Made by a program: the position numbers and the translations under genes. DNA of 64,000 nucleotides from an uncultured Planctomycetales bacterium. Its GTDB lineage: Bacteria > Omnitrophota > Gorgyraeia > Zapsychrales > Fredricksoniimonadaceae. Within the stretch, counting starts at the first letter, position 1. Each line of letters begins with the position of its first letter. The DNA is taken from the NCBI GenBank assembly GCA_964572155.1, contig CAZNDZ010000001.1, positions 648,840-712,839 of the forward strand, in the 5' to 3' direction. Shown one piece after another: positions 18,102-23,162 of this stretch. A model generated the notes under the pieces. The model was not told the origin of the DNA. It did no database searches and saw nothing but the letters and a program-made list of their open reading frames with translations.

Positions 18102-18491
18102 ATGATGCTTTCAAGAAATAATCTTAATACGACGAAAGAAAAGGTTTATTTTGTTGTTCTTTTTTTATTGGCATGCGTTGTATGGCTGGGGGTTCCTTAT
18201 TGGATATATGTTAGTCATAATTTAATTCCTCTTTGGATAATGTTAGGGATTGGTTCTTTATTGGCATTTATGACATGGCTTGGAAATGGATTGATCGTTG
18301 CATATTTGAGGGCTAACTGCGTCAAGGTTGATTCTACACAATTCTCACAACTTGGGACGGCATTAGAGGAGGTTTGTAATCGTCTAGGCACGCGAGTTCC
18401 AGAACTTTATATCTTGCAGTCCAATGGTTTTCTTAATGCTTTTGCCATGCGCCAAAGTGGCAGGGATTTTGTAGTCTTATATTCAAAATAA
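18102..18491 (+). pseudogene. truncated HtpX/M48-family membrane protease gene (N-terminal 129 aa only; no HExxH)
   Basis: Two N-terminal TM helices, then ...LGTRVPELYILQSNGFLNAFAMRQSGRDFVVLYSK-stop. This is the conserved P-x-vy-i-x-s-x-x-NAFA segment that in M48 peptidases immediately precedes the HExxH helix. The ORF stops 2 nt before the 18-bp inverted repeat of the adjacent RAYT element. Confidence 0.45.
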
Positions 18492-18492
18492 A

Positions 18493-19233
18493 GAGAAAGG
18501 GACAGTCCCCAAAAAGGGGACAGGGAGTAATGATTAAATAACATCCTTCCCCGAGGATTTCAAATATATATAGATCAACCCCCCGCAAGAAATAGTAGGG
18601 GATTATGGTAAGGAAGGCGCGAAGTGGGTTGTTGTATGATGGGTGTTATGCTCATATTATTTCAAGATCGATTAGGAAGTTAAAAGTATTTCGAGATGAA
18701 GAAGATTTTAGTTTTTTCTTAAATAGTTTAAATGAATTAAAAGGATTGCATTCATTTAAAGTTTTTCACTATTGTCTCCTTCATACGCATTTTCATTTAG
18801 TTGTGCAGATTAAGTCAGTAAATAGTTTTTCTAAGAGTATGAATAAGTTAAAGAGTCAGTATGTTTTTAAATTTCATACTAAGTATCGATTAAGCGGACC
18901 AATATGGCGAGAGCGATATAAGAGTTTGTTGATTGAAGATGACCGGTATTTATATGCGTGTGGAAAATATGTTGAGAATAACCCAGTTGAAGCTGGATTA
19001 GTGAGGAAAGCAGAAGATTGGAAGTATGGTTCAGCGAGTGGTAGAGATAAGCATATTGTAGAAGTGTTGAAAGATACAACGATGATTGCAGAAATAGATG
19101 TATCTGACAAGAAACAATACGAGCGCGGGAATGCAATCGGGTCTGATTATTACAAGTATCAAATGAGGCAGAAATTAAGCAAGGAAAGTTGATAATGATA
19201 GGGTGTCCCCAAAATGGGGACTGTCCCTTTCTC
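18493..19233 (+). mobile_element. REPtron / IS200-like unit: Y1 HuH transposase bounded by perfect 18-bp inverted repeats GAGAAAGGGACAGTCCCC
   Basis: 18493-18510 GAGAAAGGGACAGTCCCC and 19216-19233 are exact reverse complements. Each end also folds as an imperfect hairpin (GGGACAGTCCCC-aaaaa-GGGGACAGGG; GGGTGTCCCC-aaaat-GGGGACTGTCCC). Confidence 0.7.
18605..19192 (+). CDS. IS200/IS605-like Y1 (HuH) transposase / REP-associated tyrosine transposase (RAYT)
   Basis: 195 aa; N-terminal ...YAHIISRS..., HuH motif HTHFHLVV, Tyr-containing distal region (WRERYKS, YLYACGKYVENNPVEAGLV). Confidence 0.75.
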   Translation: MVRKARSGLLYDGCYAHIISRSIRKLKVFRDEEDFSFFLNSLNELKGLHSFKVFHYCLLHTHFHLVVQIKSVNSFSKSMNKLKSQYVFKFHTKYRLSGPIWRERYKSLLIEDDRYLYACGKYVENNPVEAGLVRKAEDWKYGSASGRDKHIVEVLKDTTMIAEIDVSDKKQYERGNAIGSDYYKYQMRQKLSKES

Positions 19234-19517
19234 CTACGGTGGCTATGGAATATAATAAAGATCAGATTATATTTGCTGTAAGAAAGATTTTTAGAAATGA
19301 AGATCAGAATAAAGTTCTTGAAGAATTGAATTTGGAAGATTCAGGATCTATTAGGGTTTATTTAGCGGTTTTAAAATTAAGCAAAGGTAATCTAAAAGAT
19401 TTTTATTTATTCTTAAAAAAATCCCAAGAAGATTATAGGGATGTATTGTGGCAAGCGGAATATGAAGAAAATGGTGAAAAAGAATTGATTAATCCTTATA
19501 AACAGATTTTAACATAA
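19203..19517 (+). CDS. hypothetical protein (104 aa) between the two RAYT units
   Basis: ORF only; its start overlaps the right inverted repeat of the first RAYT unit. Confidence 0.25.
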   Translation: MSPKWGLSLSPTVAMEYNKDQIIFAVRKIFRNEDQNKVLEELNLEDSGSIRVYLAVLKLSKGNLKDFYLFLKKSQEDYRDVLWQAEYEENGEKELINPYKQILT

Positions 19518-19725
19518 AGATGCAATTCCATAACGATCATATCTTGAAAGTCAAAGTTCAACAGTCCGGAGATATATTTATAAATGGTAAACTTGTTTCA
19601 TGGATAGAATTTGAAAAGGCTCTATCTAATTTAAAAGAAATAAAAGGGGCTGTTTGGTTTTATCGGCAAAATGCAATTGGGATACAGAATGAAATAGCAG
19701 AACAGGTTTTTACAAAAGTATTGGG

Positions 19726-19745
19726 AATAAATAGTGTCGTTTCTC
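19726..19745 (-). repeat. REP-B unit in inverted orientation (AATAAATAGTGTCGTTTCTC)
   Basis: Exact reverse complement of the 20-bp GAGAAACGACACTATTTATT units found 3' of the second RAYT gene, giving the inverted-flank REPtron arrangement. Confidence 0.7.
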
Positions 19746-19848
19746 ACAACAACAAGCATTGTAAGTATTTATAAATAATTCAGGATCCCCCTCCTGAAGC
19801 AACCTAAAAATAAACTAATCCCCCCGCATAAACAGAAAGAGTAAGTTC

Positions 19849-20550
19849 ATGGGAAGGGATGCGCGTGTTTGTCAAACTGGGTTGACGTATCATGTGATTA
19901 ATCGAGGGAATAATAGGGAAGTAATTTTTGTTGAGCAAGAAGATTATACGCATTATTTAAATACGGTACAAAGATACAAAAAGAAGTATGGTTTTAAACT
20001 GTTTGCATTTTGCTTAATGACCAACCATGTACATATGTTGATAAAGGTTGAGGGAGATGTAAGCATAAGTCGGATTATGCAATCGATCACTATCGCACAT
20101 ACACGCTTTTATAATTATAAATATCAGCGTAGTGGGCATGTTTGGCAAGGACGGTTTATGAGTCCAATTGTGAGCGAGGATGATCATTTGCTGACGGTTA
20201 TGAGATATATCGAACAAAATCCACTACGTGCACGAATGGTTAAAGATGTGGGAGAATATCGATGGAGTAGTTATTTATTGAATGTGCGAGAACAAGAGTC
20301 AAAAATGATTGACCGTGAAGTGAATTTGGTTTTTAATAGATTGGGCGTTGATGTAAAAGCGAGGATCAAGCGCTATCGAGAGGGAATGCAAGAGGATATT
20401 AAAAAGAAAGAGCTTGAGGCGATACAGACAACTACGAGAAAAAGTGGTAATTATGTATCAAGTTTGTTTCAGGAGCAATTTAATAAATTGTTACCAAATA
20501 AAAAGAAACGAGGTCGTCCGAAGAAGGTTGAATTAATTGTAAATATCTGA
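19849..20550 (+). CDS. IS200-like Y1 (HuH) transposase / RAYT with C-terminal AT-hook-like tail
   Basis: 233 aa; LTYHVINRGNNRE N-terminus, HuH motif NHVHMLIKV, distal RSGHVWQGRF / RYIEQNPLRARMV region, C-terminal KKKRGRPKKVE (GRP AT-hook-like). Confidence 0.75.
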   Translation: MGRDARVCQTGLTYHVINRGNNREVIFVEQEDYTHYLNTVQRYKKKYGFKLFAFCLMTNHVHMLIKVEGDVSISRIMQSITIAHTRFYNYKYQRSGHVWQGRFMSPIVSEDDHLLTVMRYIEQNPLRARMVKDVGEYRWSSYLLNVREQESKMIDREVNLVFNRLGVDVKARIKRYREGMQEDIKKKELEAIQTTTRKSGNYVSSLFQEQFNKLLPNKKKRGRPKKVELIVNI

Positions 20551-20565
20551 AATTAATTAGTTTCT

Positions 20566-20848
20566 GAGAAACGACACTATTTATTCGAGGAATAATTGAG
20601 TATTCTTAAAATACTAGCAATTTTAACCCCCCAGTGAATTAATTATAAGTTCTTTTGATTGAACGCTTTGTGAGAAACGACACTATTTATTTATGTATCA
20701 AGTTTGTTTCAGGAGCAATTTAATAAATTGTTACCAAATAAAAAGAAACGAGGTCGTCCGAAGAAGGTTGAATTAATTGTAAATATCTGAAATTAATTAG
20801 TTTCTGAGAAACGACACTATTTATTCTAGAGAAACGACACTATTTATT
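20566..20848 (+). repeat. four direct copies of the 20-bp REP-B unit GAGAAACGACACTATTTATT
   Basis: Identical copies at 20566-20585, 20672-20691, 20806-20825 and 20829-20848; irregular spacing, so not CRISPR-like. Confidence 0.8.
20691..20826 (+). repeat. 136-bp perfect direct duplicate of 20451-20586 (last 100 nt of the RAYT gene plus one REP-B unit)
   Basis: Identical strings read directly (ttatgtatcaagtttgtttcaggagcaatttaataaattgttaccaaataaaaagaaacgaggtcgtccgaagaaggttgaattaattgtaaatatctgaaattaattagtttctgagaaacgacactatttattc). Confidence 0.85.
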
Positions 20849-20934
20849 CTATTTATTTCAATGTGTCCCAATATTTTTTGTTTCTAAATAGAGATTGATA
20901 AAGAAGTTAAAAGACGAAATAAGGTGGGAGGGTA

Positions 20935-22089
20935 TTGATGAGAATTTTTAGATGGTTTTTATTCGTATCTTTTGTTGTAGTGGCATCAGGGTGTGCATCA
21001 ACGATGAGTGCGGTAAAGAGTAATGCTAGCTTTTCTAAGTATAAGAAAGTATATGTTTTGAATTTTAAGGATGATCCAAGGAAAGTTATACCTAAAGTTG
21101 TAAATCAATTTAAGAAATTAGGTCTTGAGGTTGTCTTAACTAAAGAGGGTGAACCTGTTGGGGGGACGCAAGGAACCGGCTATATTATCAATGCTGACGG
21201 ATATGTCTTAACAGCAGCGCATGTTTTGAATCATGAGAAGACAGTTACGGTTTGGGTAAATAAAGTGCAATATGAAGCAGAAGTTATTTATAAAGAAGAG
21301 GATGATAAAGAAGAGGATTCTGTCGATAATAATCATTTAAGTCTTCAGAAATCGTTAGAGAAGTCATTAAACTCAAAGAATAATCAGTCTATTGCTGAAT
21401 TTGTTAATAATCGTGATCTAGCATTATTGAAGATTATATCTGATAAAAAAGATTTTCCTACTTTGGTTTTTTCTAAGTCTCCCGCATATGTTATGGGGCA
21501 ACAAATATATACTTTAGGTTTTCCTTTAAGCAATATTCTTGGGGATACACCACGGTTAAACCAAGGGGTCATAAGTTCTGCAGTTGGGATTAAAGACAAT
21601 GATAAATTTATTCAAATTTCTGCTGAAGTGCAGCCAGGAAACAGCGGAGGGCCATTGTTATCGCAAGATGGGAAGGTTACAGGAATGATTGTGATGTCAT
21701 TAAGACAGGGTCAAAATATAAATTTTGCTCTTAAAAGCGAGCATTTAAAAGAGTTTATTAATAATGCGAACAAAAAAGCTAAAATAGGGCTTAATTTAAA
21801 CTATTCTGATAAGTCTTCTTTAGAAAACGTTCAAGAGGCGCTAGTTCAAATTCGTTCTGGAAGAATTTCTCCTGAGTTCAAAAAAGAGCCAAAGCTTGTT
21901 TGTTCGTTCCGTTATGAATATTTGTGGGATATGTGGAATCGATTTGCTTTATTTGATCTATCTTTGTTTGATTGGGATACGGACGAGATCCTATTGCGTG
22001 CTGGTCAATATGGTGATAATCCAATGACGAATGAAAATAGCACCATTGATAATGTTTTTAGAGAAATAAAGAATAAGTTAAATTTGTAG
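20935..22089 (+). CDS. lipoprotein with trypsin-like (S1) serine protease domain
   Basis: Lipobox VVVASG/C; catalytic-triad contexts TAAHV (His), DLALLKI (Asp), GNSGGPL (Ser); 384 aa with C-terminal extension. Confidence 0.7.
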   Translation: MMRIFRWFLFVSFVVVASGCASTMSAVKSNASFSKYKKVYVLNFKDDPRKVIPKVVNQFKKLGLEVVLTKEGEPVGGTQGTGYIINADGYVLTAAHVLNHEKTVTVWVNKVQYEAEVIYKEEDDKEEDSVDNNHLSLQKSLEKSLNSKNNQSIAEFVNNRDLALLKIISDKKDFPTLVFSKSPAYVMGQQIYTLGFPLSNILGDTPRLNQGVISSAVGIKDNDKFIQISAEVQPGNSGGPLLSQDGKVTGMIVMSLRQGQNINFALKSEHLKEFINNANKKAKIGLNLNYSDKSSLENVQEALVQIRSGRISPEFKKEPKLVCSFRYEYLWDMWNRFALFDLSLFDWDTDEILLRAGQYGDNPMTNENSTIDNVFREIKNKLNL

Positions 22090-22193: not shown

Positions 22194-23162
22194 ATGAAAC
22201 CTCCATTTGATATTACTCCTAGGATTTTGAATTTAACGGCTGGAATCAGCGCTATGATTGGGCGTCTTGAGGCTTCTCGTTTGAAAATTCCTCTCGTTGA
22301 TCTTAGGCGTCAGGTAGATGCGTCCTCAATACATTCTAGTTGTATTATCGAGGGTAATACATTAACACTAGATCAAGTGACAGATGTTATTAATGGAAAA
22401 CGTGTTCTTGGGCCTAAGAAAGATATTCTTGAGATTAAGAATGCGCATAAACTTTATAGCAAGATCAATGAGTTTAACCCTTTAAATGAAAAAGATCTTT
22501 TACAAGCTCATAAAATTCTTATGGAAGGGTTGGTTGACAGACCTGGAAAAATACGAGGTACGGGTGTTGTAGTAGCGGCACAAGGTAAGGTGGTTCATAC
22601 TGCACCACCACACCAGAGAGTTGCAGGATTGATATCGCAGCTTTTTAACTTTATTGCTGAATCAAAAGATCTACATGTTTTGATTACTTCGAGCATTTTT
22701 CATTATGAATTTGAATTTATTCATCCTTTTGAAGATGGTAATGGTCGTATGGGAAGATTTTGGCAGACTTTAATGTTAAGACAAAGTAGATTGGCATATA
22801 ACCTTGTTCCCATTGAAACGGCCATTAAACAACATCAATCCGAGTATTATCAAGCAATTGCTCAATCCAACAAAGATGGTAAATCAACATTCTTTGTTGA
22901 GTTTATGCTCGGAATAATTCTGGAGGCTGTTTTAGATTTAGAAAAACTTGTATCTGGTCGGGCTAAACCAAAAGATCGAATAGCATACATGATGAAAAAC
23001 TGTCCTTTAGAATTTACACGACAAGAATATATAGAAATCATGGGAGATATTGAAGTGCACACGGCATCAAGAGATTTGAATCAAGCCGTAAAATTAGGAT
23101 TACTGAAAATGAAGGGTAGTCGAGCTACAGCAGTCTATAGAAAAATTAGAAATACCGCATAA
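22194..23162 (+). CDS. Fic family protein (AMPylation/phosphocholination-type fold) with C-terminal winged-helix-like domain
   Basis: Canonical Fic motif HPFEDGNGRMGRF; 322 aa; partial REP-B core GACACTATTTAT at 23168-23179 just after the stop. Confidence 0.85.
   Translation: MKPPFDITPRILNLTAGISAMIGRLEASRLKIPLVDLRRQVDASSIHSSCIIEGNTLTLDQVTDVINGKRVLGPKKDILEIKNAHKLYSKINEFNPLNEKDLLQAHKILMEGLVDRPGKIRGTGVVVAAQGKVVHTAPPHQRVAGLISQLFNFIAESKDLHVLITSSIFHYEFEFIHPFEDGNGRMGRFWQTLMLRQSRLAYNLVPIETAIKQHQSEYYQAIAQSNKDGKSTFFVEFMLGIILEAVLDLEKLVSGRAKPKDRIAYMMKNCPLEFTRQEYIEIMGDIEVHTASRDLNQAVKLGLLKMKGSRATAVYRKIRNTA

Follow-up and report, generated by a model that had tools for sequence, protein, structure and literature searches.

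Unit 1 and its end repeats

The DNA under study (the window) is a stretch of 64,000 nucleotides on contig CAZNDZ010000001.1 from an uncultured bacterium of the phylum Omnitrophota. It contains a 741-bp element, called unit 1 here, in which the gene of a Y1 HUH endonuclease lies between two inverted, hairpin-bearing modules; a second Y1 gene with repeats of its own follows in unit 2 (Table 1). The GC content of unit 1 is 36%, against a window mean of 41%. Judged from the gene, its ends and its relatives, unit 1 is probably an element of the TIRtron/REPtron type, that is, a class-2 Y1 HUH gene in single copy together with two inverted modules that the enzyme is predicted to recognise.

A preliminary description of this DNA had reported perfect inverted repeats of 18 bp at the two ends. 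They are exact and in fact slightly longer. GAGAAAGGGACAGTCCCC was found at 18493-18510 (+) and its exact reverse complement at 19216-19233 (-), with 0 mismatches; the perfect inverted repeat measures 19 bp (18493-18511 vs 19215-19233) and is part of modules of 31 nt. Beyond four differing loop bases the inverted repeat resumes with GGGGACA, giving 30 nt in total at 87% complementarity. Even when 3 mismatches were allowed, GAGAAAGGGACAGTCCCC had 2 matches in the window, both flanking unit 1, and 100 dinucleotide-preserving shuffles of the window yielded 0 matches.

As the same description had it, each end can fold into its own hairpin. In single-stranded form, both ends gave a GTCCCC/GGGGAC stem of 6-7 bp closing a loop of 3-5 nt, at energies between -6.4 and -8.2 kcal/mol, with fold z-scores of -2.95 and -3.30 for the left end and about -2 for the right end. 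In view of stem size, energies and z-scores we consider these hairpins real but modest. The stem-loop, GTCCCC-AAAAN-GGGGAC with its A-rich loop, is found on the same strand and in the same orientation at both ends of the unit. Neither GTAG nor GTGG was present beside the stem, where the head reads GAGAAAGGGACA. The inner motifs, GGGGACAG at 18516-18523 and, on the minus strand, GGGGACAC at 19203-19210, both fit the sequence GGGGWSAS.

The encoded enzyme

The HTHFHLVV motif, from which a Y1 HUH gene between the repeats had been recognised, was located in the open reading frame of unit 1. This frame is intact, encodes 195 residues and retains the catalytic His-x-His and Tyr: the codons of H62-F63-H64 are found at 18788-18796 and that of the catalytic Tyr122 at 18968-18970, at the start of the motif YVENNP (residues 122-127). 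The protein matched Pfam family Y1_Tnp with 44.5 bits, and no helix-turn-helix match was obtained. Its sole match in NCBIfam was REP_Tyr_transpos (NF047646; REP, repetitive extragenic palindrome), the IS200 model of that collection giving no match at E 0.01 or better. Homologues numbered 255. In an alignment of 42 of them, H62, H64, Y122, W101, R104 and W139 were invariant, and a conserved C-terminal tail of about 55 residues carried the motif FE.G..IGS..(F/Y)(K/R)(F/Y)Q. The exact protein was present, 100% identical and always in one and the same context, in 8 assemblies; in one of these, labelled eukaryotic, it lies on a 59-kb contig, and in another on a contig of 1.34 Mb.

Among structures in the PDB, the only relevant match by sequence was E. 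coli TnpA-REP (4ER8, E 0.019). An AlphaFold model with a mean pLDDT of 91 also had 4ER8 as its top Foldseek match (E 3.6e-9, TM 0.58/0.68), followed by the enzymes of ISDra2, IS608 and IS200 at E values around 1e-5. Because of the YVENNP motif, the NCBIfam match and the first rank of 4ER8 in both sequence and structure comparisons, the protein is best grouped, on its sequence and modelled fold, with enzymes of the REP-associated tyrosine transposase (RAYT) type and not with IS200 TnpA, as proposed earlier. No TnpB-type Pfam match was obtained among the open reading frames neighbouring unit 1.

The leader between left module and start codon can pair in part with the ribosome-binding purines. 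A regulatory hairpin hiding the ribosome-binding site was considered for the window and dropped, the fold being no better than that of shuffled sequences (z 0.08); the leader fold was likewise not significant in the homologous locus L009, strong in L016 (z -3.65) and weaker in L015 (z -1.59). A CCCCC...GGGGG hairpin directly 5' of the start codon, with the ribosome-binding purines as its 3' arm, is shared by about half of the family. On the plus strand, no sigma-70 consensus promoter was detected upstream of the gene.

Modules across the family

The arrangement of unit 1 recurs in its relatives. Flanks were read for genes encoding proteins of 47-80% identity, at loci L009, L010, L015, L016, L017, L018 (two units), L040, L059, L098, L100, L112 and L116. 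A related module was present on every readable flank in all 14 family loci (the window and 13 others); at L015 and L100 the left flank alone could be read, and the remaining loci were bracketed on both sides. In its general form the module consists of a short head (GAGAAA, GAGAAC, GGAAG etc.), GGGACAGTCCCC, a loop of 4-5 nt and GGG(G)ACAG, with the inverse on the right flank. The closest relative, 80% identical and located beside an IS481 transposase gene in an Omnitrophota genome, has the left module GAGAAAGGGACAGTCCCCAAAAAGGGGACAG, the same as in the window.

Variants of the palindrome differ by double changes that keep its self-complementarity, GGGTCAGACCC being found in the first unit of L018 (L018a) and GTGACAGTCAC in the second (L018b) and in L112. 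The two RAYT paralogues of L018 thus each have a palindrome variant of their own, and GTGACAGTCAC goes with one protein subgroup on two unrelated contigs, those of L018b and L112. What the variants keep is the outer palindrome GGGNC-A-GNCCC and not the pairing with the inner GGGGAC arm. Gene and modules stay together among proteins that share as little as about 50% identity, palindrome variants corresponding to protein subgroups, and they do so in contexts as unrelated as the vicinity of recG, of an IS481 transposase gene, of a PIN gene and of RHS loci. The exact proteins P0016, present in 16 contigs, and P0072, present in 24, were each found in one context only. Such variant-matched units of gene plus ends offer material for working out rules of recognition.

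Outside the modules, on either side, several family members have tandem repeats of the head (GAGAACG, GGAAGG, CGTTCTC etc.) in 2-5 copies and in variable number (Table 1). At L059, the left head, of AACGAAG-like sequence, is repeated about 5 times in tandem.

Modules without the gene

A scan for GGGACAGTCCCCAWWWWGGG in one genome per species returned 63 loci, 7 of which had a RAYT-family gene in the stretch of about 8 kb covered at each locus. Several Omnitrophota genomes contained 3-6 exact module matches on different contigs, many of them as head-out inverted doublets. One such doublet, GAAG-GGGACAGTCCCC-AAAAT-GGGGACAGG-(10 nt)-CCTGTCCCC-ATTTT-GGGGACTGTCCC-CTTC, corresponds to a unit minus its middle. 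Since the module occurs solo or as doublets without a RAYT gene in other Omnitrophota, it behaves, at the level of the family and as far as sequence comparison can tell, like a REP/REPIN or a miniature element. For the genome of the window itself, which was covered over these 64 kb and showed the two flanking copies only, a REP family is unproven.

One further exact match of the 18-mer, L098, came up in a metagenome scan in the same eukaryote-labelled assembly, and was not counted as dispersal. Its contig differs from the window in GC content (47% vs 41%) and in its family member, whose closest relative is P0014 (57% identity); on account of both differences it probably belongs to another bacterium. 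The GGGACAGTCCCC core is also repeated in Clostridia, Collinsella, Bifidobacteriaceae, Metabacillus niabensis, Sphingomonadales and Steroidobacter (L022, L027, L041, L035, L065, L047, L079). In these unrelated phyla it often lies inside longer palindromes, e.g. CCCCAATTTGGGGACAGTCCCCAAATTGGGG, and no family gene is found within 8 kb.

Variation and cut genes at the unit ends

When 8 near-clonal assemblies were aligned to the window, over about 55 kb in total, the differences amounted to 1 single-nucleotide polymorphism and 3 distinct indels, and all indels were located 0-4 bp from the repeat ends. The repeats themselves stayed intact, the variable right junction (19234..19263) lying just outside the intact repeat. 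Two of the three indels recurred in two independent samples each. Other hairpins in the aligned 55 kb showed no indels.

The unit ends also coincide with cut genes. To the left of unit 1, an HtpX-like fragment that matches positions 17-116 of the 325 of its profile has its stop codon 1 bp outside the left repeat, and this end therefore represents a rearrangement or insertion junction. The fragment has one distant homologue, which carries Pfam M48. In L059 (6680-7720), a gene of the unit 2 type without its 5' half (RAYT2-like) starts directly after the right end of a unit 1-type element, and in L018 the left unit end abuts a duplicated RHS core fragment, the right end a different RHS C-terminal tip. 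Indels and cut genes together agree with nicking at the boundaries by a nuclease, followed now and then by repair that is imprecise or by events at one end. Enzymes of the RAYT and TIRYT kinds are found widely and, to our knowledge, direct signs of their action in nature are scarce; a near-clonal natural population that differs almost only at the unit ends would be a concrete place to study how such an enzyme cuts.

Relation to known systems

The motif Y---NP is the common signature of class 2 (TnpA-REP-like) enzymes and Y---Q that of IS200 (PMC6006769, Table 1, Quentin et al. 2018), whose TnpA is further characterised by DH[VI]H and Y[IV]ENQ (PMC6006769). Di Nocera et al. 2013 (PMC3733652) give GGGGWSAS as the consensus of the inverted repeats at "TIRYT" genes in "TIRtrons", and describe some TIRtron repeats as partly self-complementary, in moderately abundant families that occur as dimers or clusters. 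Unit 1 resembles these elements in its RAYT-like Y1 gene, which lies between terminal inverted repeats and not between GTAG-tagged REPs, and in repeats that carry GGGGACAG and GGGGACAC and are partly self-complementary; in some genomes, moreover, the repeats of its family form moderately abundant sets of dimers or clusters, with a variant of its own for each enzyme. The preliminary description had taken the ends for REPs. The GT[AG]G foot of canonical REPs is absent, and the published TIRYT/TIRtron description with GGGGWSAS (PMC3733652) fits better; on sequence, unit 1 would be better filed with GGGGWSAS TIRtron/TIRYT elements than with canonical GTAG REPtrons. The earlier reading as a whole is thus partly supported, a RAYT-like unit with inverted cognate repeats being retained.

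Most TIRYTs were assigned to TnpA-Y1 subclass 2.1 (Quentin et al. 2018, PMC6006769), which is defined by NHVH or NH[YF]H, W[EQ], YIELNP, a length of about 238 aa and a C-terminal helix-turn-helix (PMC6006769). The unit 1 protein, with THFH, WR, YVENNP and 195 aa, departs from these motifs. Its Tyr motif and size are nearer subclass 2.4, and no published TnpA-Y1 subclass fits cleanly. The proteins of both units were compared with the subclasses by motif strings only, and TIRtron repeats were likewise compared only through their published consensus. A further difference from known TIRtrons is the host phylum, Omnitrophota lying outside the published surveys, and our literature search found no report of such elements from it. 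Unit 1 thus adds Omnitrophota, an uncultured phylum of very small, possibly predatory bacteria, to a kind of element described since 2010-2013, and leaves the basic classification unchanged.

E. coli TnpA-REP and its REPtron (4ER8; PMC3333891, PMC3479197), a HUH/Tyr nuclease acting on single-stranded hairpins, share with unit 1 a single-copy gene between inverted palindromic repeats, and the repeats occur elsewhere as inverted doublets (REPINs/BIMEs) as well. Unit 1 differs from this system in a protein only 18% identical in structural alignment, in the missing GTAG guide tetranucleotide, in much shorter stems and in the additional tail, about 55 residues long, at the C-terminus. As to the repeats, dispersal was seen in relatives, and the window genome showed the two flanking copies in 64 kb. 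With IS608, ISDra2 and IS200 of the IS200/IS605 group, unit 1 shares the Y1 HUH fold, the Pfam family, short hairpins near the ends and a small gene. Elements of this group lack terminal inverted repeats, often occur in several near-identical copies and often have a tnpB partner, whereas unit 1 has Y..NP instead of Y...Q, inverted-repeat ends, one copy seen and no tnpB. H-rpt elements (ISAs1-type) sit inside classical E. coli Rhs elements and encode enzymes of the DDE class. They resemble unit 1 in position, a transposase-like gene lying just 3' of the gene for an RHS core, with orphan toxin tips around it, and differ from it in enzyme class (DDE vs HUH/Tyr); the two are not known to be related in sequence.

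Proposed mechanism and alternative explanations

For the mechanism we extrapolate from the solved systems, E. coli TnpA-REP and the TnpA enzymes of IS608 and ISDra2. On this model, the enzyme would bind a module while the DNA is briefly single-stranded, e.g. at a replication fork, nick beside the GAGAAA head with formation of a covalent 5'-phosphotyrosine bond, and rejoin the strand. In relatives, nicking and rejoining might spread the small modules. In the lineage of the window, nicking or the repair of nicks could produce the duplications and deletions anchored at the ends as well as the truncated neighbouring genes. The gene-bearing unit itself would move rarely, if at all.

A number of observations weigh against unit 1 being a TIRtron/REPtron-type element. 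With 70.8 bits, the REP_Tyr_transpos match lies below its curated cutoff of 80. Residue 142 (codon 19028-19030), which is Ser, the first of W.YSS, in at least 90% of the 42 aligned homologues, is Gly in the window protein; this is the only departure, every other invariant residue being kept. The stems of 6-7 bp are short. The window contains no module copy besides the two flanking ones, so that spread of the module is seen only in relatives. The predicted nicking site is a guess from the clustering of the indels alone, and the indels, which have short microhomologies (TAC; C), could also have arisen by enzyme-free replication slippage at a hairpin. Finally, the ends of L116 have repeated GGGACAG and neither the outer palindrome nor the inner stem, and recognition of a hairpin may for this reason not be essential. 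By the same token, GGGGACAG is the part common to the whole family, and the recognised feature may be the hairpin of 6 bp, the outer palindrome or GGGGACAG by itself.

Of the alternatives, an autonomous insertion sequence of the IS200/IS605 type survives best, though we consider it unlikely. The 741-bp unit would then excise and insert in single-stranded form by means of the hairpins near its two ends, with the doublets as miniature forms derived from it. The Pfam assignment to Y1_Tnp agrees with this, and since the stem-loop is in direct orientation on the same strand at both ends, an IS608-like one-strand reaction on the whole unit is possible. Mobility of the unit would also account for family members in unrelated contexts, genes truncated exactly at unit ends, flanks of the L018 unit that read in frame as RHS repeats, and a GC content below that of the window. 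The enzyme, however, has the Y..NP motif, no match to the NCBIfam IS200 model and TnpA-REP as its best structural counterpart; the ends are true inverted repeats, and tnpB is absent. A second copy was not seen, each exact protein occurring in one context; an unoccupied version of the window site did not turn up, and the HtpX-like gene lacks its other half, no HExxH-bearing frame being present in the window. An ordinary IS200/IS605 element is thus disfavoured on three counts: one copy seen, ends that are inverted, and the class of the protein.

Still less probable, in our estimate, is an inert relic whose gene is inactive and whose hairpins alone cause the variation at the ends, by slippage during replication or by template switching, in an AT-rich part of the genome that is undergoing decay. 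The region of 16-22 kb does have 34-36% GC and contains a truncated gene, and the lack of other GAGAAAGGGACAGTCCCC-type copies in the window, the change of S142 to Gly, the microhomology at the indels, one of which is a simple tandem duplication, and the modest z-scores of the hairpins would all be compatible with decay. Yet the reading frame is intact, all catalytic and invariant residues save S142 are kept, and the protein is 100% identical in 8 assemblies. Head duplications, moreover, recur at both ends in many distant members, which ties the process to the element and not to the locus, and the other hairpins in the aligned 55 kb are without indels.

That nuclease and modules mark or create junctions at which RHS toxin tips or immunity genes are added or exchanged appears highly improbable. 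In its favour, RHS genes or orphan toxin tips are neighbours of the unit at 7 or more of the 14 distinct family loci, and the L018 modules bound duplicated RHS core fragments. On one side of the L018 unit is a core fragment, on the other an alternative C-terminal tip and, after this, a lipoprotein gene; in L116, the gene directly after the unit shares 55% identity with the tip of the RHS toxin of L018. But all this may be shared ancestry of one neighbourhood (the RHS proteins of window and L018 are 39% identical, and L070 shares a second neighbouring gene with the window), no RHS fragment lies beside the unit in the window as it does in L018, half of the loci have no RHS gene, though several of them are short contigs, and the mechanism is purely hypothetical.

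Table 1. Features of the two Y1 units, their ends and related sites in the family (window coordinates unless a locus is named)
Feature	Position	Strand	Details	Basis or occurrence
3'-truncated HtpX/M48-like gene	18102..18491	+	129 aa, no HExxH	NCBIfam HtpX E 2.7e-6
8-bp tandem duplication	across left boundary, ~18489-18497		AAAGAGAA	2 samples (L005, L006)
Unit 1, left end module	18493..18523	+	GAGAAAGGGACAGTCCCCAAAAAGGGGACAG; head GAGAAA; palindrome GGGAC-A-GTCCC; inner GGGGACAG at 18516-18523 (+)	sequence, repeat search, folding
Unit 1, left hairpin	18505-18510 / 18516-18521		GTCCCC / GGGGAC, loop AAAAA	
Unit 1, leader	18524..18604	+	ATCCT..AGGAT and weak CCCC..GGGG pairing overlapping ribosome-binding purines	
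Pre-start hairpins	18575-18607; L015 2975-3003; L016 9960-10003; L040; L098			
Unit 1, Y1 HUH endonuclease gene	18605..19192	+	RAYT/TIRYT-like class, 195 aa	Pfam, NCBIfam, homologues, model
Unit 1, right end module	19203..19233	-	minus-strand reading GAGAAAGGGACAGTCCCCATTTTGGGGACAC	
Unit 1, right hairpin	19205-19210 / 19216-19221		GTCCCC / GGGGAC	
17-bp insertion or deletion	right boundary, BLAST position 19234		after TTTCTCCTAC	2 samples
29-bp deletion	~19235-19263 by direct reading, BLAST end 19263		from one base past TTTCTC	1 sample
Unit 2	19725..20851	+		repeats, Pfam, NCBIfam
Unit 2, left repeat	19725-19749			
Unit 2, Y1 gene	19849-20550		233 aa; NHVH, WQ, YIEQNP	
Tandem head repeats in the family	L010 1790-1840 and 2650-2690; L009 2865-2880; L015; L017; L059			
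Family loci adjoining RHS genes	window, L016/L054, L017, L018, L070, L112, L116			

The neighbouring unit 2

The protein of unit 2 is 28% identical to that of unit 1. It scored 81.8 bits with REP_Tyr_transpos, above the cutoff of 80, and 35 bits with the IS200 model, below the cutoff of 55, and with NHVH, WQ, YIEQNP and 233 aa it largely shows the signatures of subclass 2.1. Its repeat, REP-B (GAGAAACGACAC), has 5 copies in the window, all beside unit 2. On the right side of the unit, GAGAAACGACACTATTTATT is present as four direct copies, of which the last two adjoin in tandem, and a 142-bp segment made up of the 3' end of the gene and the repeat is duplicated 240 bp downstream (20448-20589 and 20688-20829). 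Several public assemblies break at 20480.

The preliminary description had seen a resemblance between the head of the unit 1 repeat (REP-A) and that of REP-B and had suggested two related families, each served by its own RAYT. The resemblance is weak, 7 of 12 positions agreeing without gaps and 10 of 13 with one gap. The idea of a separate repeat for each enzyme gains from the L018 paralogues with their own palindrome variants and loses from REP-B, which is a plain terminal inverted repeat with no convincing hairpin. At L064 and L100, the repeats of the unit 2 homologues are GGGGTCAG and GGGGACAC. In L059 both kinds of Y1 gene adjoin, as they do in the window.

Genomic context

Type II secretion proteins, PNPase and FtsK are among the products encoded in the window, and those relatives of the PNPase that carry an organism name (64-79% identity) all come from Candidatus Omnitrophota. 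Unit 1 is found 2.8 kb downstream of a gene for a 2146-aa SpvB/TcdB/RHS toxin (9394-15834), in a low-GC stretch (16000-22000; 34-36% vs about 42%). This stretch holds small genes without family matches, both Y1 units and a trypsin-like lipoprotein (20935-22089), and after it comes a Fic-domain gene (22194-23162). A 163-aa lipoprotein (16484-16975) has a 39% identical homologue beside the module in L070.

Where family members adjoin RHS loci, they repeatedly sit just 3' of giant SpvB/TcdB/RHS toxin genes or immediately 5' of orphan toxin tips. Adjacency to RHS genes (loci in Table 1) may be inherited synteny or a functional tie; SpoVG synteny between window and L018 is absent. A stronger version of such a tie, which we regard as distinctly doubtful, would make the Y1 family a dedicated resident of RHS loci whose nicking creates the junctions where tips and immunity genes are captured, duplicated or swapped. 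If true, this would be a route to toxin diversification through single-stranded DNA, of which the end indels of the near-clonal strains would be a live trace. The RHS adjacency across the family is a lead that deserves a survey.

At L018, the first RAYT unit is placed exactly where homology to the main RHS gene ends. Between 9340 and 12160 of this locus, two duplicated fragments of the RHS core have modules of another type, AACAGGTGACAGTCACCAATAAGGGACAGG, at their borders, and these modules truncate a duplicate of the second RAYT gene after 74 identical residues, leaving an open reading frame of 94 aa.

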